A DNA stretch of 64,000 nucleotides. Origin: a virus (lineage: Duplodnaviria > Heunggongvirae > Uroviricota > Caudoviricetes). The notes beneath the pieces were generated by a model. It did not search any database. It was not told the DNA's origin and was given only the letters and a program-made list of their open reading frames with translations. Within the stretch, counting starts at the first letter, position 1. Every line of letters begins with the position of its first letter. A program made the position numbers and the translations under genes. Of the stretch, positions 8,767 to 44,151 are shown one piece after another. Where the stretch lies: the IMG/VR virus record IMGVR_UViG_3300018839_000001; one strand, written 5' to 3'.

Positions 8767-10362
8767 TTAGCTGGCGAGGTATGTTTCTGATTGCTCTTTA
8801 CGTCCTTTAATGAGACTGCCAATCACACCGACAATTGAAATATTATATTGCTCACTTTCCCACTCAATTATAATTTCATCGATGAGCGAGGATATGATTT
8901 TTTGCTTTGTTTCAAAAGAAATCTTATCTTGATTCTTAATTTCATTTTTAATCTGTCCAATAAATTTTATTAAATCCTTTTTATTCTGATTGTCGATTTC
9001 TTTATCTTGAATCTGATCCTCATATTTTGATATTTCAATTTTGATTAACTTTTCTTTTTCATTTAGTTTTTGTATATCTAAATCCATTTCGTTCTCTTCA
9101 ATATAACCTTTTTTAAATAATTGAAGTATTCTCTTTCGTTCTTTGGATATCTCCTCTAATTTAAACTTCAATAAATCGTATGCTTGTCTAACTGAATCAT
9201 TTGCTCTTTCTTCTTTTCCAGCGTGAACAATTTTCGAAGGATCAAAAATAAAATCATAAATCATTTCCCAAATTTGTTTTTCAATTTCGTTAGCTTTTAA
9301 AATTTTTGAACAACAACTTTTTGCACCTTCTCCGAAAACTCGACCATTCTTATTCACGCATCTATAATTTTTGTATGAATGTGTTGATGTAACCTCTCCT
9401 GTTACTTTTGATCTCGTTTTAGAAGTAGTTGTGTAGGACGAATATTTTGCACCGCAGTGAGCACATCTGATCATTTTTCTCAAAAGATACTGATGTTTCA
9501 CATTTCCTGAATGACTTGTATTTTTGACTCGTTGATTTTCTGCTAATGTAAATGTCGCGAAATCGACTATAGGAGGAACAGATACTTCGATCCATTCTTC
9601 TTTATCTCTATTTTCATAAGCTCTTTTTGGTTTACCTGATTTAGTTTTTTCGCCTTTAATCTTTTTCATTTTTTTCTTGTTATAATAAAATTTCCCAATG
9701 TATGTTTCATTTTTAAGAATTTTATTGATGGTGCTCTGATTCCACAAATGACTCTTTTTCATTTTTGTTTTGGCGCCCAATATGGAAAGTCGTTCACCAA
9801 TTTCTCTGATCTTCAACTTATCATAAACATACCATTGGTAAATTTTCCTAACAAATTTTGCTTCTTCTTTGTTGATAACTAATTGCCTATCTACATAGTC
9901 GTATCCATAAGGTGGTACACGCATAGGCATAACAAATCCATTTTTTACTGCCTTAATTGATCCTCTTCTTGTTCTTTTTTTGATTAATGCCAATTCATAC
10001 TCAGCGATTGACGACTGAATATTAAAAAAGAGCTTCCCTTCTTCTGTATTCTTATACTCAGTATCAACAAAAACAAGCTCTACGTTACTTTTTTCAAATT
10101 CAGTACAAACAAGAAGTCGGTCAATCATGTTCCGGCTTAGACGGTCAGGATGAACGATGATAATTCTTTCTATCTTGCCCAATTTCACATCTTCTCTTAA
10201 TTCATCCATCCGAGGTCTTTCAATATCTTCTCCAGAAAAACCTCTTTCTTCATATTCAAGAATAAGATCATCAGGAACATTTAACTCTTTCGCCTTCTTC
10301 AAACAAGCCTCTCTTTGATATTCAAGACTTGTTCCATGATCTACTTGCTTATCTGTGGACAC
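8767..10362 (-). CDS. large serine recombinase (integrase)
   Basis: Resolvase-type RVSTDKQ catalytic motif, IIVHPDRLSRN, recombinase domain, C4 zinc ribbon, coiled coil. The conserved N-terminal strand YTAIYTRVSTDKQ extends upstream of the track start (GTG at 10362) and has no canonical start codon. Confidence 0.9.
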   Translation of the reverse strand: MSTDKQVDHGTSLEYQREACLKKAKELNVPDDLILEYEERGFSGEDIERPRMDELREDVKLGKIERIIIVHPDRLSRNMIDRLLVCTEFEKSNVELVFVDTEYKNTEEGKLFFNIQSSIAEYELALIKKRTRRGSIKAVKNGFVMPMRVPPYGYDYVDRQLVINKEEAKFVRKIYQWYVYDKLKIREIGERLSILGAKTKMKKSHLWNQSTINKILKNETYIGKFYYNKKKMKKIKGEKTKSGKPKRAYENRDKEEWIEVSVPPIVDFATFTLAENQRVKNTSHSGNVKHQYLLRKMIRCAHCGAKYSSYTTTSKTRSKVTGEVTSTHSYKNYRCVNKNGRVFGEGAKSCCSKILKANEIEKQIWEMIYDFIFDPSKIVHAGKEERANDSVRQAYDLLKFKLEEISKERKRILQLFKKGYIEENEMDLDIQKLNEKEKLIKIEISKYEDQIQDKEIDNQNKKDLIKFIGQIKNEIKNQDKISFETKQKIISSLIDEIIIEWESEQYNISIVGVIGSLIKGRKEQSETYLAS

Positions 10363-10506
10363 ACGTGTATAAATTGCTGTATATCTAATGACAATTCATC
10401 TCCCGAAGTGTACACAACTCTCATATTAATTATATACACTATTATAGTATTTGAAAAGAAAGAGATGAAAATCTTGCATTCACCTCTTTCTTATTATGTA
10501 TTAGCA

Positions 10507-10692
10507 TCATTCTTCTACTCTATTAATTACTCCATTCAAAACTCCATTTAACCTTAAATCATTCCAGATTAGTTGATAACAATATGTTAAAGTCTTTTCA
10601 ACATCGTCTTCATCAAAATCCTTTTGAATGAAACTAACTTTATTTAATTGACTCAATTTATTTTCACCTTTTCTTACACTACAAAGTGACAC
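10507..10692 (-). CDS. hypothetical small protein
   Basis: Track ORF, 61 aa. Confidence 0.35.
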   Translation of the reverse strand: MSLCSVRKGENKLSQLNKVSFIQKDFDEDDVEKTLTYCYQLIWNDLRLNGVLNGVINRVEE

Positions 10693-11224
10693 TTAAAGAT
10701 TTAGGATCAAGACGTATTACACTTCTTTGTCTCTTATTAGCATATTTAACTGTATTCCAAGTTCCTCCGGCTTCAACTCCGTCCCAAATTGCAATTAGAA
10801 ATTTCGAGTTGTCTACCATCCATTCATTTCTTCTTTGCATACACCAAGGTGTGTAATTTTCTTTTGATATATAGCAGATATGATCTGCATCTTTTAAAAT
10901 ATTATGATATGTATCTTTGTCTTCTCTCTTCCACTTTTCGCTTTGATTCATACAGGGGACTGCACAAATCAATTTAATATGTGGGTATTTCTTTCTTAAA
11001 GAAAGGACTACTTGTGCTGACCACATGTCTGATCCAAGTGCCATACCTGAGACAAATGTATCTATTCCTCTTCTATTAATAAGTCGCTCAACAAGGGTTT
11101 TTAATTTCAGAAACAGTCGCATATTCCCCTCTTCCAGAGGGTCATAGCCAAACAATTTATCTGGTCTATGACCTGTAAAAGCAAGGGTTTTATCAAAATT
11201 TATTTCAAATTGAAAGCAACTCAT
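10679..11224 (-). CDS. DUF1273 / YpsA-YoqJ-like SLOG-family protein
   Basis: AFTGHRPDKL…GMALGSDMWSAQ…ICAVPC resembles YpsA/YoqJ (SLOG nucleotide-binding fold). Confidence 0.55.
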   Translation of the reverse strand: MSCFQFEINFDKTLAFTGHRPDKLFGYDPLEEGNMRLFLKLKTLVERLINRRGIDTFVSGMALGSDMWSAQVVLSLRKKYPHIKLICAVPCMNQSEKWKREDKDTYHNILKDADHICYISKENYTPWCMQRRNEWMVDNSKFLIAIWDGVEAGGTWNTVKYANKRQRSVIRLDPKSLSVTL

Positions 11225-11790
11225 TTCTTTTTAGATTTAATTTGCTTTTTGCTTTGTTTTTCTTTGTTTTCCGTTTTAACTTTCTCTTCTTTTTTATTAA
11301 TGATTTTCATTTGAAATGGTTTTTTGACCGTTTTAATTTCAAAATCACCTTTAACATTTAGAGCAATTTCTGTGATCTGATCAACTCCTTTATATTCGCC
11401 TTCATACAATAAAGGAGCAACATTCAACCCTAAATCTTGTCCAATTCGTTTTACTGCTGTATGAAGCAGGTATCGATCTGCTTCATTGTCAAGAATGTCT
11501 TCAAGCAGAAATTCACCTTTTTTTAACCACTTTCCTAAAAATGTATATCCATCACCAACATGAATTTTTAAATGGTCAACAAATTTATGAAATTCAAGAA
11601 CAGATTCTTTATCGCGAGATGCAGAAAATCCCACGAGGTTGTTGACGACTCGTTTAAACGAAACGTTAATTCCATTAACAAATTCTCTAACAATAATTTC
11701 GTCACCTTTTACAAGGTTATCTCCTTTAGCAATAGATTTTTCAGCATCATTTTCATTTAGATTGATTACAACTTTGATTTGTTCGCTCAT
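11221..11790 (-). CDS. hypothetical protein (Lys-rich C-terminus)
   Basis: Track ORF, 189 aa. Confidence 0.45.
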   Translation of the reverse strand: MSEQIKVVINLNENDAEKSIAKGDNLVKGDEIIVREFVNGINVSFKRVVNNLVGFSASRDKESVLEFHKFVDHLKIHVGDGYTFLGKWLKKGEFLLEDILDNEADRYLLHTAVKRIGQDLGLNVAPLLYEGEYKGVDQITEIALNVKGDFEIKTVKKPFQMKIINKKEEKVKTENKEKQSKKQIKSKKK

Positions 11791-11794
11791 TTTA

Positions 11795-12214
11795 TTACTC
11801 TCCTTCTGTTGTTACTTTTAATTTTCCATTCTCTAAAGAAAAGAAATTGATTTGTTTTTTCTCGGTGTTAAAATTGACTCTGGTAATTATTGATTTTTTA
11901 ACGAAATCTACACCATTTTTAGTAGACATTATTGATTTATCTACGAAGATGTGTGTGAATTTTTCATCTGCTTCTATTTGTGCAATTGGTGCAAAATAAA
12001 TCACACTTCCATCTGTAAAAAACTCTTTTCGCAATTGAGGTGAAGGCATTTGATAACCTGTTGTCTTTTTCCCTTCGGAAACCAAGTCTTTAACAACTTT
12101 CTGAAACATTGCCTCCCTTGCTCCTATAGAAGAGATATCTTGGCTATTAAAATATGTAATTAAAATTTTCTTTGGTTTATTCTCCATAATTAATATCATC
12201 AACTCCTTTGTCAT
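11795..12214 (-). CDS. hypothetical protein
   Basis: Track ORF, 139 aa. Confidence 0.45.
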   Translation of the reverse strand: MTKELMILIMENKPKKILITYFNSQDISSIGAREAMFQKVVKDLVSEGKKTTGYQMPSPQLRKEFFTDGSVIYFAPIAQIEADEKFTHIFVDKSIMSTKNGVDFVKKSIITRVNFNTEKKQINFFSLENGKLKVTTEGE

Positions 12215-13481
12215 ATCTAATACATTTAAAGCTAGGAAACCTCAAAGATGGTTGTCCTGTTTTTTCATCTTTAGACTCTTCGAAATATTGAACCTCGATA
12301 ATCTTTCCACAAATGAGGTCAGGATTATCACCAAATTCCCTTCTTTGATCAGGGGTGAATCCCGATCCAACACCAACGATATTGCCTTTGTATTCAACGT
12401 TTACTCTGGATAGCAATCCTTTGAACTGACCATCAATAGCTTTTTCAATTGATGTGACAATAAGGTCTGCTGTTTTGAATTTTTTCACTTTCAGTAAGCT
12501 ATCGGTTCGTTTTGTGGCATATAGTCCATCTGCCTTGTTAATCATAAGACCTTCATGATCTGCTTCTTCTGCCCATTTCATCAAGACAGAAATCATTTCT
12601 TTGTCTTCTCCTGCATAAAGAACTGGCAGGATTCTTATGTGATTTGAACTACTTCCAGCAAGGATTCCATCAAATAAATCAAGTTGATTTCTACGTTTTT
12701 CATATGTATTTTTTGATTTTCCATCTTTAAATTCTGCAAGAGGTAAAGCATCAAACATGTAAAACTCTAAATCTTTCTTCTCTCCATCTTTACGAACGAC
12801 TTTTTGTGTTGCTCTAAAAAGATCATCGGAAGAAAGGTTCTTTTCATTAGCAAGTAGAAGTTCTCCATCGAAAACCCATCCATCAGGTAAGCACCTGAAC
12901 TGTTCTTCTAACTCGGCCATTCCATTGATTTCTTTTCCTTGACGTGTAAAAAAGTTAACTCTACCCTCATCTTTGATTGCAACACATCGATTACCGTCAA
13001 GTTTTAATGTTACATAGAATTTGCCCTTTACTTTTGGTTCTTTCTTAGCATAGGATTCTGCTAACATTACTGAAAAACTTGGGATGAAACCTTTGCCGTA
13101 AACCTTGTTGATAGTTTTCTCGGTAATACCAACTTTTAAATCTTTTGTTGCAATTTGTTTTGCTAACTCTTTTTCATCATCAGTTTCAAGTCTATCCACA
13201 AAATATTGCACGCTTAAAATATCTGTATCTCTTCCACTATTGAGGCGTTTCAAATAATCCATCAAACCTTGAATGTCTCGAATAATCGTTACATATTCAT
13301 CAAGCTTTATGTTTTTATTTATTTTCTTAGTCGAGATTCCAGTCACTATGTATGGGTTGAACACAAACTTTAAAACTTCTTTAAACAATTCATTATCTTC
13401 ATACTTTTTCAGAATCGCCTCTTTACCGTTTCGAGATGATTCATTTTTTAATTCGTGAAAAATCTTTACTAACTCTTTCAT
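12177..13481 (-). CDS. ATP-dependent DNA ligase
   Basis: Adenylation motif I KLDGNR. Nucleotidyltransferase + OB organisation. RBS AAAGAGGTG. Confidence 0.8.
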   Translation of the reverse strand: MKELVKIFHELKNESSRNGKEAILKKYEDNELFKEVLKFVFNPYIVTGISTKKINKNIKLDEYVTIIRDIQGLMDYLKRLNSGRDTDILSVQYFVDRLETDDEKELAKQIATKDLKVGITEKTINKVYGKGFIPSFSVMLAESYAKKEPKVKGKFYVTLKLDGNRCVAIKDEGRVNFFTRQGKEINGMAELEEQFRCLPDGWVFDGELLLANEKNLSSDDLFRATQKVVRKDGEKKDLEFYMFDALPLAEFKDGKSKNTYEKRRNQLDLFDGILAGSSSNHIRILPVLYAGEDKEMISVLMKWAEEADHEGLMINKADGLYATKRTDSLLKVKKFKTADLIVTSIEKAIDGQFKGLLSRVNVEYKGNIVGVGSGFTPDQRREFGDNPDLICGKIIEVQYFEESKDEKTGQPSLRFPSFKCIRYDKGVDDINYGE

Positions 13482-13496
13482 TGATACACCTCTTTA

Positions 13497-13518
13497 TCCA
13501 TTATTAATTAGTTTTATA
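13497..13518 (-). promoter_or_regulatory. SPBRE-like element 28 bp upstream of the ligase start
   Basis: CCATTATTAATTAGTTTTATAT. Confidence 0.6.
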
Positions 13519-13522
13519 TTAG

Positions 13523-14092
13523 TTAAATAATTTCGTCTACAATTCCATATTCCAACGCTTCATCTGCAAATAGGTAAAGCTCTTCTTTGTGCCGCTTTGT
13601 TTTATCCATTAGCTCTTTAGGAAGCTTAGTTCGGCTAATGATATATTGATCATATCTGTCGCGAAGCTTTTCAACATGATCAATTTCACGTTTTAATCCT
13701 TCGACAGTGTCTTTTTGTCCAGTGGAAGCATCATGATACATAAAAGTAGCCAGTTTAGATGCGAAACGCTTATGCCCTGATACGTAAATATACAACCCAG
13801 CACTCATAGCTTTCCCACTACAGTATGTATGAATAGGAGTTTTACTGCTCTCGATAACACCAATTAGCATGTTGGCATCGTACAGCACACCACCATATGT
13901 ATTAACATAAATTTTGATTGGTTTTGGTGTATATGATCTATCTTTTTCTAATTTATCCTCATCATACCTATTGATTTCAATAATTTTGTCTACTAATTTA
14001 TGAATGCTTTCTTCATTGACTGTTCCTCCAAGAATTAGGTCTCGTTTTTTGCCGCTACTATTTTGAGTATTATTTTTTTCTTTTTCTGACAT
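13523..14092 (-). CDS. ClpP-family serine protease
   Basis: YVNTYGG…GKAMSAGLYIYVSGHKRFA…MYHDASTG gives a ClpP-like Ser/His arrangement. Confidence 0.65.
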   Translation of the reverse strand: MSEKEKNNTQNSSGKKRDLILGGTVNEESIHKLVDKIIEINRYDEDKLEKDRSYTPKPIKIYVNTYGGVLYDANMLIGVIESSKTPIHTYCSGKAMSAGLYIYVSGHKRFASKLATFMYHDASTGQKDTVEGLKREIDHVEKLRDRYDQYIISRTKLPKELMDKTKRHKEELYLFADEALEYGIVDEII

Positions 14093-14281
14093 ATTAGATT
14101 TCCCCTCTCAATGTTCTTCTTAATTCAGCCAATCGTGAGCAAATGGTTGGTTAAGAAATTCCCCTATAATTGGATGCAGATCATCTGTAACATCTCTTCT
14201 CTCCAGAACCCCATCCCAAATGTTGATTTCTATGATAAGGAAAATTCGTCCATCTTTCAATTCAAATCTATGATTCAATAG

Positions 14282-14533
14282 TTAAATCTCTCCATTAATT
14301 ACAATCTCTTTTATGTCTTTTGTTTTAAGAATGAAACTTTTATCGTTATTATCTACAACCCATAGTGTGTTGTAATATTCTAATGAATTAGCTAAAAAGT
14401 TTGCAAGCTTGCTCTCACTTTCTCTGCATTCTAAAGCATCAATAGAAGAACCGTCATTTTTATAAACTGTGTAAGAAAAAACTTTCAAATCAGGTTTCTT
14501 TTCTTCTTTTTTCTTAAAAAACTTTAAAAACAT
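14282..14533 (-). CDS. hypothetical protein
   Basis: Track ORF, 83 aa. Confidence 0.4.
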   Translation of the reverse strand: MFLKFFKKKEEKKPDLKVFSYTVYKNDGSSIDALECRESESKLANFLANSLEYYNTLWVVDNNDKSFILKTKDIKEIVINGEI

Positions 14534-14547
14534 AACTCCACCCCTCC

Positions 14548-15576
14548 TTAATGTGCTAATGTATCTGCTTCCCTTAGAAATTCCAGCTTTTTAAATAAAT
14601 CTTCTCCCACATATTTTTCAAGCTTTTCTTTATTAGCATTTTGATTTAAGAGATACATATGAAATTGAATCAATGTTACAACAGTATGTATAAAACCATC
14701 GTCAAACCCCATTTGTTTAAGAAGGTGCACAGCCAATTGTGAGCCAACGTATTCATGTCCAATAAAATTGGCATATCTCACCTCTTCTCCTTTTCTGTTA
14801 ACAAAGCTCTTACAGAATGGTTTCCCAATGTCATGGAGGAGAGCAGTCCAAAGCATCATTTCTTTCTCAGTTTCATCTTCTGTCTTATAGTTGTCTAAAA
14901 CATGCTTGTAAACGTAATATGTATGTCTACTTGTCGAAAAGCTATGATATTTCGAATCCTGAGGAAAGTCGTGAATAGCAAAGAACTCTCTAAAGTATGA
15001 GGCAAGAAAACCCATAAGATCATAACCTTCTCTGTTTAACAAGACTCCTGCTCTCACCGCGTCAGCAAATTGTTTAGGGAGTACATCTTCAATTAGTCCT
15101 TCTGGGTAGTTAAAGACAATATTGTCCCAGCCTTCTGAATAAATAGGGATTTGTAGACTCTTATACATATTGTCTATTGCGATTTTTGGCACAGTTCTCT
15201 CACGATGAGTGTTCATATCTATGCATGATCCATAGCCTGTCGCCATGTATACTGCCGTTTTAACCACTTCCTTTGGAAGTTGTTGAAGCAATCCTTTACG
15301 CTTTTTTCGGCTAATATTAGTAGCATCATAAATGACGTGTTTACCTTTTCTTAATGCATTTAACGTTCTTGTTCTCATTAGTTCAAAAACTTTTGAAGGG
15401 TCAGTCTGAACACTCTCATCCCCATATAATTCTTCTCGAATCTTATCTGATGAAAGATATTTAATGTCATCTCTTTTAACACCGTCTTCTCCTTCAATTA
15501 GTTCTTTTGCAAATGTAGACTTTCCACTTGCAGGCAAACCAATCAGCATTAGAAATCTCAATTGTCCCACTAGCAC
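14548..15576 (-). CDS. polynucleotide kinase (P-loop) fused to an HD-domain phosphoesterase: RNA end-healing enzyme
   Basis: N-terminal Walker A GLPASGKST. C-terminal HD motif LLHDIGKPF, of the kind found in CCA-enzyme-type cyclic phosphodiesterase/phosphatase domains. Confidence 0.7.
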   Translation of the reverse strand: MLVGQLRFLMLIGLPASGKSTFAKELIEGEDGVKRDDIKYLSSDKIREELYGDESVQTDPSKVFELMRTRTLNALRKGKHVIYDATNISRKKRKGLLQQLPKEVVKTAVYMATGYGSCIDMNTHRERTVPKIAIDNMYKSLQIPIYSEGWDNIVFNYPEGLIEDVLPKQFADAVRAGVLLNREGYDLMGFLASYFREFFAIHDFPQDSKYHSFSTSRHTYYVYKHVLDNYKTEDETEKEMMLWTALLHDIGKPFCKSFVNRKGEEVRYANFIGHEYVGSQLAVHLLKQMGFDDGFIHTVVTLIQFHMYLLNQNANKEKLEKYVGEDLFKKLEFLREADTLAH

Positions 15577-16745
15577 ATCTCCTCTTTTTCGTATTCGCCA
15601 TAGTTTTTATAAATATCTTCTTTAAGCATTTGTTCTGGGAATGTTCCTGTGCCATACATTGCGAACATATATTTTTGCAACTCTGGTGGAATATTTTCTG
15701 TTACAAATAGAGCAAACTCTTTTTTCTTGTCGGGTTTTGCAATTTGATTAAAGGTCATTCGAATTAGTTTTGATTGAGCTTCGAAAATTCTATCGATCTT
15801 ATTTTTAAAGCCCTCAATCTCTGGTCTGAACTCTTCTGGTAATGACACTATGTATTCATCAATTCTATTTTCTGCCCAAGCTTTATATTTAGCCTTAGTA
15901 GACAGACCATGCATTAATCTATGTACCTGTAAGTATTCACTGCCTTTAATTTTCAAACGTTTACCATTTGAAAACCTAATCACCCAACCTTCTTCATTAG
16001 CTGATAGCATATCTTTCATTTGAATCAATTCTTCAAATTTGTACTTATACTGCTTAGCAAGAGGCATATTTAATCTGCAAGCTTCCCAATCGACATCCCC
16101 ACAATTAGCATCATGAATAGAGTCGAAAAGATATATAACACCAAGCAACACTAAGTGTTCACTATCTTTATAATCAACAACCACTCTATTTTCTGGGTAG
16201 ATAATTTCTACAAGGTAGGTTACTGGTGTATAGCAGTAACTATAAATATTCTCATTTTGAGAATATTTATTTTTCCACATTTCAGTAGCTTTGATTGCCT
16301 GATCTGATGTGAAACTCCCTTTTGTAGCAAATCGAATTTCATTGTTAAAGAAATAGGAAATCCCTAATGAGCCATCGATTTTTTCCATGACAGATTCAAT
16401 TTTTGAAAAGTCAATGTCCTTTTCATACTCTGGATTCTCACCATAATTAAAAAACTTATCAAACGGTTTTGCTAATATGTATATAAATCCATTATTATTT
16501 AGCTCTGTTGTGTCAATAATTAAACCTCTGGCGGTCATAGTCTCATGATTCCATCGTTTCTCATATACAGCAAGTTTTGTATAACACAATATTTTTATGT
16601 TCTCATCTTCTGGATGACTTTTGATGTTGATATACCCATTCTCTGATTCTTCTATGTATTTTTTATATTCTTCCTTTTTCATTGTTGGCAACTTTGAATA
16701 TAAGATTTTTTTTAATGACTCCAATCTTATCAGCTCACTTATCAA
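15570..16745 (-). CDS. RNA ligase (Rnl family, KxDG nucleotidyltransferase)
   Basis: Motif I MEKIDGSLG. Translationally coupled to the PNK-HD gene. Confidence 0.7.
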   Translation of the reverse strand: MISELIRLESLKKILYSKLPTMKKEEYKKYIEESENGYINIKSHPEDENIKILCYTKLAVYEKRWNHETMTARGLIIDTTELNNNGFIYILAKPFDKFFNYGENPEYEKDIDFSKIESVMEKIDGSLGISYFFNNEIRFATKGSFTSDQAIKATEMWKNKYSQNENIYSYCYTPVTYLVEIIYPENRVVVDYKDSEHLVLLGVIYLFDSIHDANCGDVDWEACRLNMPLAKQYKYKFEELIQMKDMLSANEEGWVIRFSNGKRLKIKGSEYLQVHRLMHGLSTKAKYKAWAENRIDEYIVSLPEEFRPEIEGFKNKIDRIFEAQSKLIRMTFNQIAKPDKKKEFALFVTENIPPELQKYMFAMYGTGTFPEQMLKEDIYKNYGEYEKEEMC

Positions 16746-17581
16746 GTAATAAATTCATTTAAATCAAGAGTCTTATCATTCAGACTATCTATTTTTTTCT
16801 TAATCTCTCTAATATCTATTTGCTTTCCGTTATTTCTGTAGTAGGAGATTAATAATGCAATTGCTCCCGCAACTAATGGCGACGCCATTGAAGTACCAGT
16901 CATTTTTGCATATTTCCCATCTTTATAAGAACTTAGAATTTCAGTCGAGGGTGCAAGAACATCGAATCCACTATTGGTAAATGGAGAAATTTTTTTATCT
17001 TTATCAACACCACCAACAGCTATCACTTCGTCTAGACGTGCAGGATACAATGATTCGCTGTTTCCATCATTGCCAGTTGCACAAACCATGACAATCCCTT
17101 CATTATAAGCTCTTTCGATTCTCTCTTTAAAAATGTTGGGAAGTTCTCTATCCACCCCTAAAGACATACATAAGACATCAAAGCCATAGTTAATTGCATA
17201 AGTAATCCCATCCATTACGCTTGCCATATTTCCTTTGCCGTTATCGTCTAAAACTTTGATAACATGCAATTCAGCTTTCGGTGCGACTCCAGTATTTTTT
17301 CCTACTAAAAGTCCAGCAACATGACTTCCATGCCCTTTTTCATCTTCAACATTATGGCTTCTTTCAAAAAAGTTATAGCCAGATTTAAATGCATGGGATA
17401 GCTCAGGATGATCTGTGTCTACTCCTGTATCCATAAGAAGTATACGAACGCCTTCTCCTTTTGTTTTACTCCACACGTTAGGAGCATTGATCGCTTTTAG
17501 CCCCCAATCGATTTCGCTATCATCTCTTCTTAAAGAGTCAAATACTTCAATTTTGTCCAGATCGATTTCTCTTCCTTTCAA
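16742..17581 (-). CDS. subtilisin-like serine protease (S8), no signal peptide
   Basis: Catalytic triad motifs DTGVD, HGSHVAG, GTSMASP. No N-terminal hydrophobic leader. Confidence 0.85.
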   Translation of the reverse strand: MKGREIDLDKIEVFDSLRRDDSEIDWGLKAINAPNVWSKTKGEGVRILLMDTGVDTDHPELSHAFKSGYNFFERSHNVEDEKGHGSHVAGLLVGKNTGVAPKAELHVIKVLDDNGKGNMASVMDGITYAINYGFDVLCMSLGVDRELPNIFKERIERAYNEGIVMVCATGNDGNSESLYPARLDEVIAVGGVDKDKKISPFTNSGFDVLAPSTEILSSYKDGKYAKMTGTSMASPLVAGAIALLISYYRNNGKQIDIREIKKKIDSLNDKTLDLNEFIT

Positions 17582-17840
17582 GTCTTCTTTTCTCCTTTTG
17601 GGTTTTTCTTATCTCCTTTTTATTTCTATATTCCTCATCATATTTTTGTTTCTCGCAAATCCTGTCATAGTCATGTCTCAAAACTTCTTTTTCCTTTTTA
17701 CATTTAGGACAATAGATGATATAAATTTCTTTCAGTTCATAACCGACAGTCTTATCGATATCTCTTTTATATGTAGCCACAAGTTTGAAATCATGATTAC
17801 AAAACAATCTTTTAATTAAATTAATCACTTTACTTATCAC
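17547..17840 (-). CDS. small zinc-finger protein with a very basic C-terminal tail
   Basis: CNHD…CPKCKK. C-terminal KKEIRKTQKEKRRLERKRNR. Confidence 0.45.
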   Translation of the reverse strand: MISKVINLIKRLFCNHDFKLVATYKRDIDKTVGYELKEIYIIYCPKCKKEKEVLRHDYDRICEKQKYDEEYRNKKEIRKTQKEKRRLERKRNRSGQN

Positions 17841-18429
17841 TTCCTAGTGGTGCAACCTCTCTAAATTCAGTTTTTAAATTATTATAGATAGGCTTAAACA
17901 CTGCTTTAATTTCATCCCAAGAGTCCATCTTTAAAATTTCGTCCAAAAGATAATTGGCACATGAATAATCAACGATTTTGCTATGTTTTGCAATTTGAAT
18001 ACCAAACATCAAAATTCTTAATGAATGAAACATGCTCTTCTTCCCAATATAATCCTCTCCAATAGCCAGTTTCTTTTTGCATTTTACAAAGCTATTAGAT
18101 GATACAGCAGAGATTTCACACCTAAGCTTTTCTTTGTCAAGCATAAAATATTTAAGGTATGGATCATTTGGGGCTTGAAAGATGCACTCCATGACACTAA
18201 TATGATGATCTTTAATCCTCTCGATAAATTTACCTTCACTATAAACTGTATAATCTGCTCCTTCTTCTCGCAAATTGTAATACAGATTCCTGTCGTCAGA
18301 ATCTACTACGACAATATAGTCTGAGTCTGAGTTTTTGGTTTGAGAATTATAAACACTAGAACCATATGAATATACTTTTATGATTGGCTCATCAATTGTA
18401 TCTCGCGTTTCATATTGTTCATCTTCCAT
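17830..18429 (-). CDS. minimal nucleotidyltransferase (Pol-beta superfamily) with helical C-domain
   Basis: YGSSVYNSQTKNSDSDYIVVV matches hG[GS]x9-13Dh[DE]h. Confidence 0.55.
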   Translation of the reverse strand: MEDEQYETRDTIDEPIIKVYSYGSSVYNSQTKNSDSDYIVVVDSDDRNLYYNLREEGADYTVYSEGKFIERIKDHHISVMECIFQAPNDPYLKYFMLDKEKLRCEISAVSSNSFVKCKKKLAIGEDYIGKKSMFHSLRILMFGIQIAKHSKIVDYSCANYLLDEILKMDSWDEIKAVFKPIYNNLKTEFREVAPLGSDK

Positions 18430-18452
18430 AACGTTTCACCTCTACAAAATCC

Positions 18453-18629
18453 TAATCGTAAATTGCCTCTTCTTTTAAAAGCTTTTTAATGTGAGACAGT
18501 AGCTCAATTTCAATGTTCGCTTTTCTTACTCCGCGATCCACAAGCTGTGGCACATGAATATCAAGCTGTGTTTTTAGAGAATTTAAAATCTCCAAGTCCT
18601 CTTCATTTAATAGGTATCTGTTTTCCATG
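18453..18629 (-). CDS. small hypothetical protein (~58 aa), first gene of the RNA-repair operon
   Basis: RBS AGGAG + 8 nt + ATG. MENRYLLNEEDLEILNSLKTQLDIHVPQLVDRG…. Confidence 0.35.
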
Positions 18630-18659
18630 TGTTTTCTCCTGCATAAAATCCCTATTTTA

Positions 18660-18700
18660 TTAAATATAATCTTCTTAATATATTTCGCAATATAAGCGAA
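18660..18700 (-). promoter_or_regulatory. sigma-A promoter (TTGCGA-16-TATATT) overlapped by TTCGC-N7-GCGAA inverted repeat
   Basis: The only promoter-like site upstream of the 18629..13523 operon. No SPBRE here. Confidence 0.45.
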
Positions 18701-18710
18701 GTGCGAATGT

Positions 18711-19019
18711 CTATCTTAGATATTCTTTAATTGTTTTTAAACTAATCATTCCGTCTTCATTTGCCATTTCGGTCATATCTTCTAGTGCATGTTTTTTATA
18801 GATATAGTTATCATTTAACGATGCAATTACAGCACTTGCTTTTGTTAATGGTTGAGTTAAACCTGACACTTCTTCATATACTTTAGGCGCTTCATTCAAT
18901 AAAATTCTGTAATCTGCTAATTCACGTTGTACTTGGTCAAGAATTAACTCACCATTTTTATCTTCAACAATATCTTTCCAAAAATTCTGATATACTTCTT
19001 TATAATCCATTCTCATCAC
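18711..19019 (-). CDS. hypothetical protein
   Basis: Track ORF, 102 aa. Confidence 0.45.
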   Translation of the reverse strand: MMRMDYKEVYQNFWKDIVEDKNGELILDQVQRELADYRILLNEAPKVYEEVSGLTQPLTKASAVIASLNDNYIYKKHALEDMTEMANEDGMISLKTIKEYLR

Positions 19020-19061
19020 CTTTCTCTACTTCACAATTTTTCAACTGTATCAAAATGGCAC

Positions 19062-19244
19062 TTAAACAATCTTTGATTGAAGAATACTCTGTTTCATCAA
19101 TTCCATCATTTCGATTTTTTTCTTATGTATATCTTTACAAATTCTATTAATCTCAAGCTTTACGTCACTTGACTGACCCATTAATTTTTCTAAGTATGTT
19201 TTCTTTTTAAATAAAGCCCTTAATTCATCTTTAAGTTGATTCAT
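19062..19244 (-). CDS. hypothetical small protein
   Basis: Track ORF, 60 aa. Confidence 0.35.
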   Translation of the reverse strand: MNQLKDELRALFKKKTYLEKLMGQSSDVKLEINRICKDIHKKKIEMMELMKQSILQSKIV

Positions 19245-19254
19245 CTTAAGCCCC

Positions 19255-19806
19255 CTAAGAATATTGATTAATAATGTTTAAAATAATTTGCACTGTTTTC
19301 CTCAAGCCTTTACCTCGAACATTTTTGACCACATAATCAAAATTATCTCTATTCTTCATTTCATTTTCATAAGTTTCAATTCGTGATAAGGACTGTTCAA
19401 TGGTGTCACCTCTTAGAAGCATATTCGCTAGGCAATCCTCCTTGCTCATGTGTAGGAAGATCCCAACTGCATCTGGATATACTTCTTTTAATTGTTTATA
19501 TCCATGATAATCAGCGATTATATATGCATGGTTATATTTCTTCATAACAGTTTCAATTTGATGCTTGGTTATCCCATAGTAGTGACTTCCATAGACAACA
19601 TGTTCGACAAATTCACCATCATTCATTGCAGAAGTAAACTCTTTTTCTGTAAGAAAATAGTACGACTCGCCATCCACCTCACCTTTTCTTATAGGTCTAG
19701 TTGTTGTAGAGATACACTCTCCGATCATTTCAGTATGATTTTTAATTTCGTTCATAATCGTGGTCTTGCCAGCTCCACTTGGAGCTGTAATTATAAACAG
19801 TGCCAT
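19255..19806 (-). CDS. gmk: guanylate kinase
   Basis: P-loop APSGAGKTT. Gmk signature STTTRPIRKGEVDGESYYF. Confidence 0.8.
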   Translation of the reverse strand: MALFIITAPSGAGKTTIMNEIKNHTEMIGECISTTTRPIRKGEVDGESYYFLTEKEFTSAMNDGEFVEHVVYGSHYYGITKHQIETVMKKYNHAYIIADYHGYKQLKEVYPDAVGIFLHMSKEDCLANMLLRGDTIEQSLSRIETYENEMKNRDNFDYVVKNVRGKGLRKTVQIILNIINQYS

Positions 19807-19844
19807 TTAAAAACCTCCTTTAAATATTTTATTTACTTATACTA

Positions 19845-19876
19845 TTATTATAACATTATTAATTAGTTTAGTCAAT
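19845..19876 (-). promoter_or_regulatory. SPBRE-type promoter (TTGACT-17-TATAAT)
   Basis: TATTATAACATTATTAATTAGTTTAGTCAA. Confidence 0.65.
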
Positions 19877-20165
19877 TTCTATTTTTCTTTTTCGATTTTT
19901 TAGACATTCTCTTCCGAGCTTTCTCTTTCTTCTTATTGCGCTTCGGGTTTGTTTTACTAATAGAAGGTGTTTTAATTGACTTTACTTTTGCAAAAACCTC
20001 TTGGAGTGCTTGATTCACTTCCTCTGGTGTCATCCGTTCTTCATTTGCAACCTCGTAGACAATCTCATCTATGGATTTATTTGATACTTCATCAATAACT
20101 TCTTCATCTGACAATAACTTATTAATATCCTTATATAAATCGTTCATGTTATTTATCCTCTCCAA
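19872..20165 (-). CDS. hypothetical protein (Lys-rich C-terminus)
   Basis: Track ORF, 97 aa. Confidence 0.4.
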   Translation of the reverse strand: MERINNMNDLYKDINKLLSDEEVIDEVSNKSIDEIVYEVANEERMTPEEVNQALQEVFAKVKSIKTPSISKTNPKRNKKKEKARKRMSKKSKKKNRN

Positions 20166-20436
20166 TCCTTTTAATCATATTTTCAATTTCTTCATCACTA
20201 AAATGTTGTGTTAAAATACTGCGAAGAATATTATTCTGCTCTAAAATCAATTCGTGTTCTTTAATTATCTGTAGCGAAGCCCTTGCTAATTTATCAACCT
20301 TAACCTCTCTGTCCTCAGATGCTTTAAGGATGTTCATATACTTTTTTTCATAAAAATGAACTCTGATCTCTGAGAACGCTCCTATGAACACCACTAAAGC
20401 TGACGCACAAATTAAAATTGTTACAGGTGATGGCAT
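20149..20436 (-). CDS. small membrane protein
   Basis: N-terminal TM (MPSPVTILICASALVVFIGAF). Confidence 0.4.
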   Translation of the reverse strand: MPSPVTILICASALVVFIGAFSEIRVHFYEKKYMNILKASEDREVKVDKLARASLQIIKEHELILEQNNILRSILTQHFSDEEIENMIKRIGEDK

Positions 20437-20453
20437 ATTATTATCTCCTTTTT

Positions 20454-20490
20454 AAAAAATAGAGAGTGAAATTTCACTCTCTATTTTTTA
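20454..20490. terminator. bidirectional Rho-independent terminator
   Basis: Perfect hairpin AUAGAGAGUGAAAUUUCACUCUCUAU flanked by A- and U-runs. Confidence 0.8.
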
Positions 20491-20491
20491 T

Positions 20492-21250
20492 TTATTTTCC
20501 TGTAGAACCCCAACCACCAATTCCACGTGTGCTAGGTTTTTTAATTAACTCTTCATATGAAATATGTTCATCTTCTGCATCAGACTGTTTTAAGACAACA
20601 GCTTGAGCAATTGCTTTAGAGTACGGTACAAAATATGTATTTGTTTTTTTATCATGGAAAAGTTCGTCCACTTCACTTGAGATAACTACATCCCCGATCA
20701 ATGGGACTACTTGCAAAATAACTTCTCCTATATATGTCGCATCAATCAGTCCGCTTACATTAACCATTCCAATCGATCCGATTGATGAGCGTTCGTGTTT
20801 TAGGGATAACACATCTTCAAGATTTAGGTATGAGGCAAATCCCAAAGGGATTTTAGCTAATGTTAATTGTGGGATATGTAATTCGTAAATCTCTTTACCT
20901 TCACGAACAATTGGTTCTAATCTTGCATAGCAATCCCTACCACCATTTTCTTTATCTTTCGTAGGAATTACCCCTCCCTTAACTGATGCGAAGTATGTAA
21001 CCTTTTTATTTTTTTGCTTTCTTGATTTTAAGAATTTTTCTTTTGCTTTATATTTCAGCTTGTCGATCTCCCACATTTTTAACGTTTTTTCTTTTGTTGC
21101 ATTCTTATCAAGTTTAATTTCAACTTTTACCTCAAGAGAGTTTAGATCGATAGAGAGGACTTTCGCCTCTGTCTTTTCTTTAATAACCCAAACAATTTCT
21201 CCTACATTATAATAGCGTCTTTTCCCTTTTTCCATGTTCATTCTCCTCAT
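20492..21250 (-). CDS. dut: dUTPase with ~100-aa N-terminal extension
   Basis: dUTPase motifs GLIDATYIGEV and C-terminal TRGIGGWGSTG. The N-terminal 100 aa have no dUTPase homology. Confidence 0.75.
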   Translation of the reverse strand: MRRMNMEKGKRRYYNVGEIVWVIKEKTEAKVLSIDLNSLEVKVEIKLDKNATKEKTLKMWEIDKLKYKAKEKFLKSRKQKNKKVTYFASVKGGVIPTKDKENGGRDCYARLEPIVREGKEIYELHIPQLTLAKIPLGFASYLNLEDVLSLKHERSSIGSIGMVNVSGLIDATYIGEVILQVVPLIGDVVISSEVDELFHDKKTNTYFVPYSKAIAQAVVLKQSDAEDEHISYEELIKKPSTRGIGGWGSTGK

Positions 21251-21259
21251 TAATGTATT

Positions 21260-21286
21260 TTATCATTATTAATTAGTTTAATAATC
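21260..21286 (-). promoter_or_regulatory. SPBRE-like element upstream of dut
   Basis: TATCATTATTAATTAGTTTAATAATCG. Confidence 0.6.
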
Positions 21287-22246
21287 GTAATCGGAATCTC
21301 TCATATCTTCTACAACTGACATCAGGTATCCATTTCCGACTGCACTAAAGAAATCATGATTTGTTGTAGTAGTTGAAAGACCATTAATGACTATTGGATT
21401 TACATCATCCGCAGTATCAGGGAATAATGGAGACAATCCTAGATTCATCAAAGCTTTGTTCGCATTATATCTTAGAAATACTTTGACATCCTCAGTCCAT
21501 CCAATTTTGTCATATAGGTATTCTGTGTATTTACATTCATTTTCGTAAAGGGTATATAATAAATTATATGCCCAAGATTTTAATTCTTCTTTTTCTTGAT
21601 CAGACAATTTATTGAATCCTACTTTGAACTTATATCCAATGTAAGCTCCATGTGCTGATTCATCGCGAATGATTAGCTTGATTACCTCAGCCACATTAAT
21701 TAACTTCCCTCTTCCCATATAATAAAGAGGTGTGTAAAATCCTGAGTAAAATAGGAATGATTCTAGAAAAACACTTGCAACTTTCTTTTGCAAAGGACTT
21801 CCATTATGATATACCTCTCTGATAATAGAAGCTTTCTTTTGTAGGTATTCATTGTTTTCTGCCCATTCAAAAATCTCACGAATTTCTTTTGGAGTATTTA
21901 AAGTGCTGAAAATAGAAGAGTAACTTTTTGCATGCTCAGATTCCATAAACGCTATATTGTTATAAACCGCTCTTTCATGTTGAGTGATCGCATCTTTTTT
22001 GATTGCGTCAATTCCGTCTTCTGATTGCAAAGTGTCTAATCCTGTTAATCCTCCAAACACTTTACCGACTAGCTCTTGTTCAATTTCAGAGAGCAAACTC
22101 CAATCTTTCTTGTCTTTTCCGACAGGCATACGATTTGCCAGCCAGAATTGACTAGCAAGTTGTTCATAAGCTTTCTTATCTAACATATCCTCAACAGCGT
22201 TCCAGTTAATTGGTTTGAGGACATTGATCGCCTTTTCATTATTCAT
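21278..22246 (-). CDS. nrdF: ribonucleotide reductase class Ib beta subunit
   Basis: Ferritin-like di-iron ligand motifs (…ESFLFYSGFYTPLYY…DESAHGAYIGYKF…). Confidence 0.9.
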   Translation of the reverse strand: MNNEKAINVLKPINWNAVEDMLDKKAYEQLASQFWLANRMPVGKDKKDWSLLSEIEQELVGKVFGGLTGLDTLQSEDGIDAIKKDAITQHERAVYNNIAFMESEHAKSYSSIFSTLNTPKEIREIFEWAENNEYLQKKASIIREVYHNGSPLQKKVASVFLESFLFYSGFYTPLYYMGRGKLINVAEVIKLIIRDESAHGAYIGYKFKVGFNKLSDQEKEELKSWAYNLLYTLYENECKYTEYLYDKIGWTEDVKVFLRYNANKALMNLGLSPLFPDTADDVNPIVINGLSTTTTNHDFFSAVGNGYLMSVVEDMRDSDYDY

Positions 22247-22264
22247 CTTTAAAACACTTCCTCC

Positions 22265-43746: not shown

Positions 43747-43799
43747 ATTAACTCCCTTTCCTTATATGGTTATTTATATCACTTGATAAAAACTATCTT

Positions 43800-44150
43800 T
43801 TATTCAATCTCTATATTCAACCCTGTTGCTCCCACTTTAATTTCCTTCATCTCTCCAATTTGTGGTATATATAAATGTTTCTTTCCATTCACCGAAACAA
43901 TTTCACCCTTCCAACAACCGTTTTGCACAAAGAATTTTGTCCCAATTGGTAAAGTGTGAATATCTGCGTTCTCTATATATTCTCCTTCCTCTCTATACAC
44001 CTCTCCTTGTTCAGAAACCCTCCTTTTAGAAACTTTAATATCGATTTTGTATAGTGAATTTTCATCTTCAAGCATTAAATTATGTAACCAATCAGTTACT
44101 TTTGATTGCCCATCAATAACGTTAACTGTATCGAAAATCTTCCTATACAT
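43800..44150 (-). CDS. hypothetical protein
   Basis: Track ORF, 116 aa. Confidence 0.4.
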   Translation of the reverse strand: MYRKIFDTVNVIDGQSKVTDWLHNLMLEDENSLYKIDIKVSKRRVSEQGEVYREEGEYIENADIHTLPIGTKFFVQNGCWKGEIVSVNGKKHLYIPQIGEMKEIKVGATGLNIEIE

Positions 44151-44151
44151 G

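Follow-up and report, generated by a model that had tools for sequence, protein, structure and literature searches.

A probable heal, patch, and seal RNA-repair module among the nucleotide-metabolism genes of a Tsamsa-like Bacillaceae phage

The window, by which we mean the whole 64,000-nt stretch of phage DNA analysed here, contains nine closely packed genes for RNA end-healing and sealing enzymes, two proteases, a zinc protein, and several small proteins, and the question is whether these genes act as one cassette or whether a smaller functional unit lies among ordinary neighbors. We consider it probable, judging from sequence and predicted structure, that three of them, encoding a bifunctional end-healing enzyme (Pnk-HD), an Rnl1-family ligase, and a compact nucleotidyltransferase (NTase), form a module for healing, patching, and sealing RNA breaks in a Tsamsa-like temperate Bacillaceae phage. 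This module sits within an early nucleotide-metabolism gene array, and the reading of all nine genes as a composite is not supported. Mending of RNA is a known kind of phage counter-defence, and the three enzymes, taken together, appear capable of repairing cleaved RNA.

The initial annotation had placed nine genes between 18629 and 13523; all were recovered in the same places as minus-strand ORFs (18628 to 13523), and its domain calls were also borne out. Of the eight junctions, four are overlaps (of 11, 35, 4, and 7 nt), and gaps of 3–27 nt separate the genes at the rest. The edges of the cluster are arbitrary, with minus-strand genes running on both upstream, through two small ORFs of 60 and 102 aa (orf60 and orf102, 18711..19244) to guanylate kinase (gmk, 19255..19806; Pfam Guanylate_kin, E 1.8e-30), and downstream, where a gene for an ATP-dependent DNA ligase (12177..13481, minus strand; Pfam DNA_ligase_A_M and DNA_ligase_OB_2; PHROG 114, E 9e-102) follows after 41 nt. 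The gmk gene is outside the repair module; in the relative L004 a different 59-aa ORF takes the place of the 102-aa one. The first gene of the cluster encodes a 58-aa protein (18452..18628, minus strand), which has no match in Pfam, NCBIfam, PHROG, or PADLOC and in the phage family is kept directly before the NTase gene (tblastn, 43–93% identity in L001, L002, L004, L009, and L010, with a weak match elsewhere in the locus in L011). Two further small minus-strand ORFs, of 83 aa (14533-14282) and 52 aa (14278-14120), are found only in the closest relatives and weakly conserved in the family, respectively. No tRNA genes were found in the window, nor was a target nuclease identified there.

The Pnk-HD protein (14548..15576, minus strand, 342 aa; Pfam AAA_33 and HD) combines an N-terminal P-loop polynucleotide 5'-kinase and a C-terminal HD phosphoesterase in one polypeptide, and its NCBIfam matches are to the kinase region of bacter_Pnkp and the HD region of CCA enzymes. 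The closest solved kinase structure is that of Clostridium thermocellum Pnkp (CthPnkp; 4gp7, E 3e-7, 28% identity); in the predicted model (pLDDT 89) the kinase matches 4gp6 with a TM of 0.76 and an rmsd of 2.8 Å, and the fold matches continue with the fungal Trl1 kinase, mammalian PNKP, and Pnkp1. Across 15 homologues the kinase set GxxGxGKS, D44, R47, D84, R125, and R127 is invariant, as are H218, H248-D249, H274, H306, and D338, that is, all metal and catalytic residues of the HD domain. The PDB match and fold thus confirm the annotated polynucleotide kinase of the CthPnkp/T4 Pnk type, as opposed to a dNMP kinase, and profile matches (NCBIfam and PDB), the alignment, and the fold search agree on an HD domain of the CCA-enzyme type in place of a HAD domain. 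We propose this domain as the putative remover of 2',3'-cyclic or 3'-phosphates.

The predicted sealing enzyme (15570..16745, minus strand, 391 aa) belongs to the T4 Rnl1 (RnlA) family of ATP-dependent RNA ligases. It matches PHROG 562 with an E of 5e-69 over profile positions 4-373 of 377 and T4 Rnl1 in the PDB (2c5u) with an E of 1e-16; its KIDGS aligns with KEDGS of T4, the EGW/EGY and KIK motifs are conserved, and motifs I, IV, and V are all aligned. These PHROG and PDB matches bear out the call of an Rnl-type enzyme and speak for neither a DNA ligase nor a capping enzyme. The match to TIGR02308 (E 2e-25) scores 89.8 bits, far below the NCBIfam equivalog cut-off of 242. The position next to Pnk-HD is open to exchange: in L028, a 158-kb contig 95–99% identical to the window and with a Pnk-HD 97% identical in amino acids, precisely the Rnl1 gene is swapped for another, OB-fold ligase, and a different ligase type also occupies this slot in BcoS-136, L009, and L011.

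The third enzyme is a compact NTase of the Pol-beta fold (17830..18429, minus strand, 199 aa; Pfam NTP_transf_2, E 9e-5). In the family alignment A2, residues G23, S24, D35, D37, and E81 are invariant, so that the GS/DxD/E catalytic set is intact. The window protein itself has no match to Pfam RlaP at E <= 0.1; 19 of 26 members of its family do, and hhalign pairs it with the PF10127 protein of L023 with a probability of 92.8% (E 4e-7, 173 columns). Its model (pLDDT 93) resembles phage and giant-virus NTases, HalB, and ANT(4'). We propose that it is a compact relative of the RNA-ligase-associated NTase RlaP and may add 1–2 nucleotides to a damaged RNA 3' end. The initial annotation had guessed at such 3'-nucleotide re-addition, and this agrees with the apparent RlaP kinship and with published RlaP biochemistry, in which 1–2 NMP are added to damaged RNA 3' ends and tRNA function is rescued after excess damage (PMC12776372). 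Phage RlaP, ligase, and Pnk have been described as a co-distributed set (PMC7824862).

On these assignments, cleavage by a ribonuclease of the host or a competitor, for example an anticodon nuclease, would leave a 2',3'-cyclic phosphate and a 5'-OH. Pnk-HD would use its HD domain to take off the 2',3'-cyclic or 3'-phosphate and its N-terminal P-loop kinase to phosphorylate the 5'-OH. If a nucleotide had also been trimmed (RloC-type damage), the RlaP-like NTase might add one or two nucleotides to the 3'-OH, and the Rnl1-family ligase would then join the 3'-OH and 5'-PO4 ends using ATP.

A close functional parallel is T4 Pnkp with Rnl1, which counters the PrrC anticodon nuclease and shares the heal-then-seal logic, the ligase family, the bifunctional healing enzyme, and a 5'-kinase that belongs to the same clade of P-loop kinases; T4 also has an RlaP-family NTase, NrdC.11. 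The window differs in its HD domain for 3'-end healing, where T4 has a HAD (DxDxT) domain, in its Gram-positive host clade, and in a ligase well below the Rnl1 equivalog cut-off. The HD-Pnk of Runella slithyformis likewise carries an HD phosphoesterase and a polynucleotide kinase on one polypeptide, and according to Munir & Shuman 2017, as cited in PMC6097658, a ligase ORF directly upstream overlaps the start of the healing gene, as in the window. The window protein has the reverse domain order, however, its partner ligase is Rnl1-type, and the system is phage-borne, without Tpt1 or MTase-HIT partners. Bacterial Pnkp/Hen1 and Pnkp1-Rnl-Hen1 systems, represented by CthPnkp, rely on a metallophosphoesterase domain and a Hen1 methyltransferase, with the ligase supplied either as an Rnl-type domain in cis or by a separate Rnl; the window has none of these. 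With RlaP (PF10127) the window NTase shares the fold, the GS/DxD/acidic catalytic set, profile similarity, and the gene association with RNA ligase and Pnk, but it is about 50 residues shorter and does not reach the Pfam model.

The phage had been taken for SPbeta-like, but its relatives are Tsamsa-like phages, and this Pnk-HD occurs in no SPbeta record. The order NTase-ZnF-S8-ligase-PnkHD-ClpP-DNA ligase belongs to the family synteny shared by the Tsamsa-like ~160-kb Bacillus siphoviruses ("Tyrovirus"), which carry the orthologous genes in the same order at 54–80% protein identity; among them are Thrax (gp97 DNA ligase, gp100 Pnk, gp101 RNA ligase, and gp103 NTase), PK-3, PJN02, FADO, and BcoS-136. 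The gene set was not new either, since Pnk, RNA ligase, and NTase already appear next to one another in the Thrax paper, whose authors point to the T4/PrrC analogy (PMC9703825). The window phage represents a separate lineage and matches these phages in patches only, at no more than 79% nucleotide identity. Its SPBRE-like operator promoters, large serine recombinase, and LXG toxin likewise set it apart.

Outside the family, an RNA ligase or an end-adding NTase lies near Pnk-HD in five unrelated or distant phage lineages, and both do in three of the five. L023 has the order Rnl1-PnkHD-Mom-RlaP-CCA enzyme; an Rnl1-like ligase, PnkHD, and RlaP are linked in myovirus KLEB27-3; an OB-ligase, PnkHD, and a window-type NTase are linked in Lysinibacillus LC76P1; and in phage G, Rnl1 adjoins a PnkHD-like gene. 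Less in keeping with such linkage, L005 has a CCA enzyme only, ~8 kb off, and in L022, where the Pfam scan covered only some neighboring ORFs, tblastn found no ligase of either type within +/-10 kb of Pnk-HD. A DNA ligase gene also stays near Pnk-HD, even in the distant L023 lineage, and DNA ends could therefore be a substrate.

The remaining genes are best discussed as neighbors. The S8 subtilase (16742..17581, minus strand; Pfam Peptidase_S8, E 4e-48) has neither signal peptide nor prodomain, and among PDB entries it matches intracellular serine proteases best (7y6m, E 2e-47); its D, H, and S motifs align with theirs, as expected from its annotation as intracellular (ISP type). The ClpP-family serine protease subunit (13523..14092, minus strand; Pfam CLP_protease, E 2e-23) aligns with PDB ClpP at Ser and His, but the Asp position appears to be Glu. 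The 97-aa zinc protein (17547..17840, minus strand; PHROG 6476 of unknown function, E 1e-22) has conserved zinc-ribbon-like ligands (CxH...CPKC); the term "basic" fits only the window and its closest relatives, the tail being restricted to the window, L004, and the 97-aa homologue in L028/L029, whereas typical members (61–103 aa) have no tail. This protein is always just upstream of S8, and in L008 the two form a single ORF (1080-2186). Among 33 representatives of its family, 31 are small stand-alone proteins of 61–103 aa, two are weak matches of 550 and 1822 aa, and none has the size of an S8 fusion. Partnership with S8 is more likely for it than a role in repair.

In a wider scheme, in line with the composite of the initial annotation, all nine genes would make up one counter-defence machine: the repair enzymes would mend the RNA, and host nucleases, toxins, or stalled peptides would be broken down by the S8/zinc-protein pair and ClpP. 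We regard this scheme as quite improbable. We know of no repair system that includes S8- or ClpP-type proteases. The genes are tightly spaced or overlapping, and the order NTase-ZnF-S8-ligase-PnkHD-ClpP is kept across family members at 48–80% protein identity, but this is not specific evidence because essentially the whole surrounding region is syntenic within the family. S8, ClpP, and the zinc protein are absent near Pnk-HD in all five lineages outside it, and ClpP is located elsewhere in L015 and missing near Pnk-HD in L007; the "unusual composite cassette" is thus confined to the synteny of one phage family, even if a survey of jumbo phages names cleaved peptidyl-tRNAs as an additional problem for phages (PMC7824862). 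Along with the three small ORFs, the S8 subtilase, its zinc protein, and ClpP are neighbors conserved at the family level and not demonstrable parts of the pathway. A DNA or dual DNA/RNA kit, in which Pnk-HD readies 5'-OH/3'-phosphate DNA ends for the DNA ligase when the phage replicates, recombines, or repairs nuclease damage and the RNA ligase is secondary, is unlikely but has points in its favor: the DNA ligase gene is ~1 kb or less from Pnk-HD in most family members, ~6 kb or less in L007 and L015, and still ~3 kb in the L023/L024 lineage; the cluster lies among genes of nucleotide and DNA metabolism (RNR, gmk, thymidylate synthase, gyrase); the kinase fold matches include mammalian PNKP, which works in DNA repair; and a title cited in PMC6097658 calls Runella HD-Pnk a DNA/RNA end-healing enzyme. 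Nevertheless, the gene that directly adjoins and overlaps Pnk-HD always encodes an RNA-type ligase (Rnl1 or OB-Rnl) rather than a DNA ligase, tblastn of the flanks (+/-5-6 kb) in KLEB27-3, LC76P1, and phage G found RNA ligase and no DNA-ligase homologue, and RNA is the substrate of the RlaP and CCA enzymes that co-occur with it.

Two other readings concern single proteins. That the NTase is a signalling or anti-defence enzyme, such as a HalB-like oligodeoxyadenylate synthase silencing a Hailong-type channel, with its proximity to the ligase a coincidence, seems very unlikely to us; its best solved-structure matches are indeed to chains of the Hailong defence NTase HalB (E 1.7e-5, TM 0.49-0.55), with aminoglycoside NTases ranking behind them, but a TM of only ~0.5 at 10–13% identity is set against sequence profiles that indicate RlaP, structures of which are absent from the PDB fold-search matches. 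Moreover, PADLOC gave no meaningful match, and a window- or RlaP-type NTase recurs near the ligase or Pnk-HD in three independent lineages. A part for the Rnl1 homologue in virion assembly rather than RNA repair, like the tail-fibre attachment by T4 gp63/Rnl1, has in its favor the PHROG 562 label "RNA ligase and tail fiber protein attachment catalyst" but appears hardly credible, as the gene lies beside a healing enzyme in the early nucleotide-metabolism array, not among structural genes. That near-identical genomes carry an unrelated OB-fold RNA ligase in its place agrees with a catalytic rather than a structural function common to the two.

Finally, the cluster had been described as "self-promoted" and as escaping the SPBRE regulon. 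The strings TTGCGA-16-TATATT (18690..18663) and TTCGC-N7-GCGAA are both present. The former is a 9/12 consensus match, of which there are 28 per 9 kb compared with 39 +/- 7 in shuffles, and the latter is at chance level, every 82 nt of the window holding on average ~1.1 inverted repeats with 5-bp arms and 3-10 nt loops. Neither is kept in L004, whose cluster proteins are mostly 93–99% identical to those of the window (82–85% for two small ORFs), and the fold of the intergenic RNA does not surpass those of shuffles (z = 0.22). A strong SPBRE-type sigma-A promoter, TTGACT-17-TATAAT with TG, is found at 19847..19875 (minus strand), with gmk as its first gene; it is an 11/12 match, the best of the 9-kb scan. 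Between this promoter, 1.2 kb upstream, and the cluster no terminator was found, which leaves both descriptions unsupported. The promoter probably starts the unit of transcription to which the cluster belongs, and the simplest reading makes the cluster its distal part. The promoter spacer contains the repeated 16-mer AAACTAATTAATAATG (core 19854-19869), present 23 times in one orientation versus 0.39 expected and in the same position in L004. A second SPBRE-like copy lies at 13499..13514 (minus strand), within the 41 nt that separate ClpP from the DNA ligase, at the downstream edge of the interval, and the same position is occupied in L004 and L006.

All nine minus-strand ORFs described in the initial annotation were found, with the same boundaries, between 18628 and 13523. 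Four of the junctions within the cluster are overlapping (11, 35, 4 and 7 nt), and the others are spaced by 3–27 nt. Genes on the same strand flank it on both sides, with guanylate kinase (gmk) and two small ORFs upstream and an ATP-dependent DNA ligase, starting 41 nt past ClpP, downstream, so the cluster is not isolated; the GC skew is one-sided over the whole 64-kb window. We found no tRNA genes and no match to Rfam families in the window, and the PADLOC search of it yielded nothing beyond generic similarities to subtilases and Cas3-HD.

The 391-aa protein (15570–16745, minus strand) is an RNA ligase of the T4 Rnl1 family, with a PDB match to T4 Rnl1 at E 1e-16. In this alignment, KIDGS stands opposite KEDGS of T4 Rnl1 in motif I (KxDG), whose lysine is the nucleophile of the T4 enzyme, motif IV (EGxV) is EGWV versus EGYV in T4, and motif V (KxK) is KIK in both. 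The match to PHROG 562 brings ligase residues 24–387 onto profile positions 4–373 of 377 (E 4.6e-69) and thereby includes the C-terminal domain, and the TIGR02308 match spans positions 29–344 of 373. Because its score of 89.8 bits does not reach the NCBIfam equivalog cut-off of 242.25, we class the enzyme as a divergent member of the Rnl1 family and exclude it as a T4 RnlA equivalog. A DNA ligase or a capping enzyme, which the initial annotation had named as the identities incompatible with its proposal, is ruled out by the Rnl1-family matches. Its predicted activity, by analogy, is to seal, in an ATP-dependent reaction, tRNAs broken in the anticodon loop.

The 342-aa protein encoded next to it (14548–15576, minus strand), Pnk-HD, consists of an N-terminal polynucleotide kinase (residues 7–156) and a C-terminal HD domain (about 216–342), as indicated by the Pfam families AAA_33 and HD. 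The sequence of the kinase is similar to that of CthPnkp (E 3e-7), and in the structural model (pLDDT 89) its best fold match is again CthPnkp (4gp6, TM 0.76, rmsd 2.8 Å), followed by Trl1-type fungal kinases, PSTK, mammalian PNKP and Pnkp1, with adenylate and gluconate kinases ranked lower. A dNMP kinase, likewise named at the outset as an identity that would speak against end healing, is ruled out, the fold being nearer to polynucleotide kinases than to dNMP/NMP kinases. An alignment of 15 homologues shows no variation at the kinase residues G13, G18, K19, S20, D44, R47, D84, R125 and R127, which align with the CthPnkp kinase and represent the P-loop GxxGxGK(S/T), the Asp/Arg pair and the arginines of the lid. 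The same is true of H218, H248, D249, H274, H306 and D338 in the HD domain, so that the H...HD...H...H...D set is intact; this domain is similar to the HD of class II CCA-adding enzymes. No HAD-family match was found in Pfam or NCBIfam that would correspond to a HAD (DxDxT) acylphosphatase domain, the C-terminal half being HD. The predicted activities of the protein, by analogy with characterized enzymes, are those of a 2',3'-cyclic phosphodiesterase/phosphomonoesterase and a 5'-kinase. The family has more than 1000 homologues. The window enzyme does not have the Runella-type order, in which HD is N-terminal and the kinase C-terminal; the kinase of PHROG 6931, at profile positions 186–339 of 343, suggests that this HD-first order is also present in phages.

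The 199-aa protein (17830–18429, minus strand) is a nucleotidyltransferase (NTase) of the Pol-beta fold, in which the catalytic set (GS, DxD and a third carboxylate, Glu) corresponds to G23, S24, D35, D37 and E81, invariant among the 26 sequences of its family alignment. In the distant locus L023, genes for Rnl1, Pnk-HD and Mom are followed, in one row, by those for a Pfam RlaP protein (PF10127, E 7e-19) and a CCA-adding enzyme, and hhalign aligned our NTase family with this PF10127 protein over 173 columns (probability 92.8%, E 4e-7). The Pfam RlaP model was also matched weakly by 19 of the 26 family members, with a best E of 7.4e-6; the window NTase itself had no match to it at E ≤ 0.1. From these profile comparisons, the window NTase is probably a compact, RlaP-like enzyme. 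The name RlaP derives from linkage to RNA ligases, with which it is co-distributed in phages (PMC7824862), and NTase/RlaP genes are associated with RNA ligase genes in the genomic contexts we compared. RlaP extends the 3' ends of damaged RNA by one or two NMPs and is required for regaining the function of over-damaged tRNA (PMC12776372). The NTase model (pLDDT 93) has Hailong HalB and ANT(4') as its nearest solved structures, with modest TM values, and phage NTases and giant-virus proteins, some of them nuclease-fused, as its nearest viral models. The viral matches of this model (m69aa477f79a5) begin with a 43%-identical viral protein, followed by Klosneuvirinae proteins at TM 0.75–0.83, two of which carry a fusion to an exonuclease or Endonuclease V.

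Homology, conserved residues and fold together establish the enzyme classes of this probable repair module. As regards substrates, the order of steps and a role in counter-defence, we infer them from the biochemistry of T4 Pnkp/Rnl1, Runella HD-Pnk and RlaP: where an RNA end has been trimmed, the NTase would patch it, and Rnl1 would seal the break as the last step. The module would work like T4 Pnkp and Rnl1 (with NrdC.11), except that the window enzyme has an HD domain whereas that of T4 has a HAD domain; apart from its reversed domain order, Pnk-HD also resembles the HD-Pnk of Runella.

We found no close relative of the window among deposited phages. Its relatives are the Tsamsa-like Bacillus siphoviruses of about 140–170 kb, rather than the SPbeta-like phages proposed initially; no SPbeta record carries Pnk-HD, and an SPbeta-like origin of the cassette is rejected. 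SPbeta-like DNA is limited, in the 50 kb searched, to a patch of about 550 bp (window about 43787–44343) that is 91–97% identical to SPbeta-group phages in the yoqR/yoqS region. The window also encodes a polymorphic toxin of the LXG-domain type, whose C-terminus has an HNH motif (6657–8528), a large serine recombinase (8767–10362) and a YpsA/SLOG protein (10679–11224), which are SPbeta-like temperate-phage traits in a genome otherwise Tsamsa-like.

Among the relatives, the ligase slot has undergone non-orthologous displacement. In BcoS-136 and the loci L009 and L011, it is occupied by a ligase that is about 420 aa long and begins with an OB fold (Pfam PHA02142 and RNA_ligase); in the PDB, this ligase matches Naegleria RNA ligase alone, and weakly. 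The most instructive example is a 158-kb metagenomic contig (L028/L029), also present in a JGI sample, whose DNA is 99.3% identical to window positions 24000..16842 and 95.4% identical over 15587..10004. Between these two blocks, precisely at the position of Rnl1 in the window, it places the OB-fold ligase, and its Pnk-HD has 97% protein identity to that of the window. The swap is clean and comprises a single gene, with window segment 15588–16841 (Rnl1) facing L028 9589–11031 (OB-fold RNA ligase, 424 aa); the flanks compared around it amount to 12.7 kb and are 95–99% identical. In PJN02 (L002 8021–8743) and FADO, RNA ligase and Pnk-HD are separated by a free-standing homing endonuclease gene.

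The initial annotation had joined the repair enzymes, two proteases and a zinc-finger protein into one composite cassette of nine genes. Within the Tsamsa-like family, the order NTase–ZnF–S8–ligase–PnkHD–(small)–ClpP–DNA ligase is indeed kept at 48–80% protein identity; since most of the surrounding region is kept as well, this carries little information. Single-sequence scans of viral and genome contigs gave near-identical loci only, and an alignment query was needed for a wider set. The neighborhood of Pnk-HD outside the family (L023/L024, myovirus KLEB27-3, Lysinibacillus LC76P1, phage G and L005) repeatedly contains a gene for an RNA ligase or for an end-adding NTase and never S8 or ClpP, and the composite cassette is not supported by this comparison. 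The main rival to RNA repair, namely DNA end-healing in the service of the DNA ligase encoded beside ClpP, seems unlikely to us in view of the genes that accompany Pnk-HD elsewhere. Still more improbable is a system in which the proteases take part, with ZnF/S8 and a ClpP paralogue destroying the attacking ribonuclease or toxin or clearing peptidyl-tRNA fragments while Pnk-HD, the RlaP-like NTase and the ligase rebuild the RNA. The gene order conserved within the Tsamsa-like family is compatible with it, and nothing outside the family supports it; if true, the region would be an RNA repair island assisted by proteases, in which the ligase slot is swappable. We prefer to regard the protease and zinc-protein genes as separate from the NTase, Pnk-HD and the ligase.

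The 279-aa S8 subtilase (16742–17581, minus strand) aligns its DTG, HGSH and GTSMASP motifs with ISP 7y6m (E 2e-47), with the Asp-His-Ser triad intact; its N-terminus extends about 50 residues ahead of the catalytic Asp, with no signal peptide and no I9 prodomain, as expected for a subtilase of the intracellular (ISP) type. In the 189-aa ClpP homologue (13523–14092, minus strand), pairwise alignment with ClpP places Ser (GKAMSAG) and His (MYHDA) in register, and the position of the triad Asp appears to be Glu. Relatives have two ClpP paralogues (in BcoS-136, L003 1036–1638 and 10299–10889), clpP1 beside the DNA ligase and clpP2 near dfrA/thyA; because the window begins at thyA, another ClpP may be encoded immediately beyond its edge. 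The 97-aa zinc protein (17547–17840, minus strand) has conserved ligands C-x-H...C-P-K-C, and its basic tail is confined to the window and its closest relatives (L004, and a 97-aa homologue in L028/L029). A word-indexed search with its core returned 2 proteins only, and an exhaustive representative search 33, all but two weak matches being small stand-alone proteins of 61–103 aa. None of these 33 representatives is a ZnF–S8 fusion. The sole fusion seen, a zinc-ribbon protein and S8 in one 368-aa ORF (L008 1080–2186, a 6-kb viral contig), hints that the two proteins could work together; it is an isolated hint, and may reflect either a real gene fusion or an indel in the assembly.

In Thrax, Tsamsa, PBC2, Kirov, BcoS-136 and PJN02, existing annotations call the orthologues polynucleotide kinase, RNA ligase and nucleotidyltransferase. 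A published study of these related phages draws the T4/PrrC analogy (PMC9703825), and HD-type phosphatases have been mentioned in connection with phage RNA repair (PMC7824862). With both the gene set and the T4 analogy in the literature, our result is incremental and not surprising; modestly new are the kinase–HD order common to a large family, the compact RlaP-like NTase and the in-situ ligase swap between genomes 95–99% identical. Mechanistic work on phage RNA repair has mainly concerned T4, to which the family offers a Gram-positive counterpart with a kinase–HD healing enzyme, a compact RlaP-like NTase and a natural ligase-swap experiment, in which two near-identical phages join the same healing enzyme to two unrelated RNA ligases. 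This pair could be used to find what determines the choice of ligase (substrate type, host nuclease or host inhibitor), and in the search for Bacillaceae RNA-cleaving defences answered by repair genes.

As to expression, the cluster had been assigned its own non-SPBRE promoter overlapped by a palindrome. A scan of 9 kb gave 28 matches of at least 9/12, this promoter (at 18690) among them, versus 39 ± 7 in shuffled sequences. For 5-bp inverted repeats like the palindrome, about one per 82 nt is expected, and neither promoter nor palindrome is conserved in the related locus L004; we reject both as a regulatory site. An intrinsic terminator in the spacer between orf102 and g1, the 58-aa first ORF of the cluster (18452–18628), is likewise rejected, the RNA fold there being not significant (z-score 0.22).

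A co-oriented 16-mer, CATTATTAATTAGTTT (plus strand), occurs in 23 copies in the window versus 0.39 expected, for example at 1363, 3175, 3230, 13499, 19854, 21264, 25062, 25153, 30227, 33365, 45794, 46101, 52389, 52517, 55862, 58430 and 59611. Most copies fall within minus-strand promoters, between the TTGACA-like −35 and TATAAT −10 boxes. In SPbeta, the master repressor MrpR has SPBRE as its operator (PMC10516654), and the 16-mer system is SPBRE-like by arrangement. The element is common to L004 and L006 and absent from 25 of the 27 loci scanned, a set that leaves out L028–L030. The copy at 19854–19869 lies within the region's best promoter (19875..19847, 11/12 with TG), 1.2 kb upstream of the cluster and just downstream of two small ORFs, which themselves follow a hairpin at 20453–20490. 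The next copy, 13499–13514, is between ClpP and the DNA ligase; both positions are kept in L004, and the stretch between them yielded no minus-strand terminator. Read most simply, gmk to ClpP form one unit that would be governed by an SPBRE-type promoter, the opposite of the earlier view that the cluster escapes the SPBRE regulon.

The hairpin at 20453–20490 is a near-perfect palindrome with a 17-bp stem and A/T runs on both strands, like a strong bidirectional terminator; it sets the RNR genes apart from the units that follow and is kept in L004 and L028. Directly upstream of the g1 ribosome-binding site, an inverted repeat ATAAAAT-N4-ATTTTAT (18640–18662, minus strand) is kept in the window, L004, PK-3 and PJN02, with the sequence farther upstream unconserved, and may be a site of regulation at the protein or RNA level.
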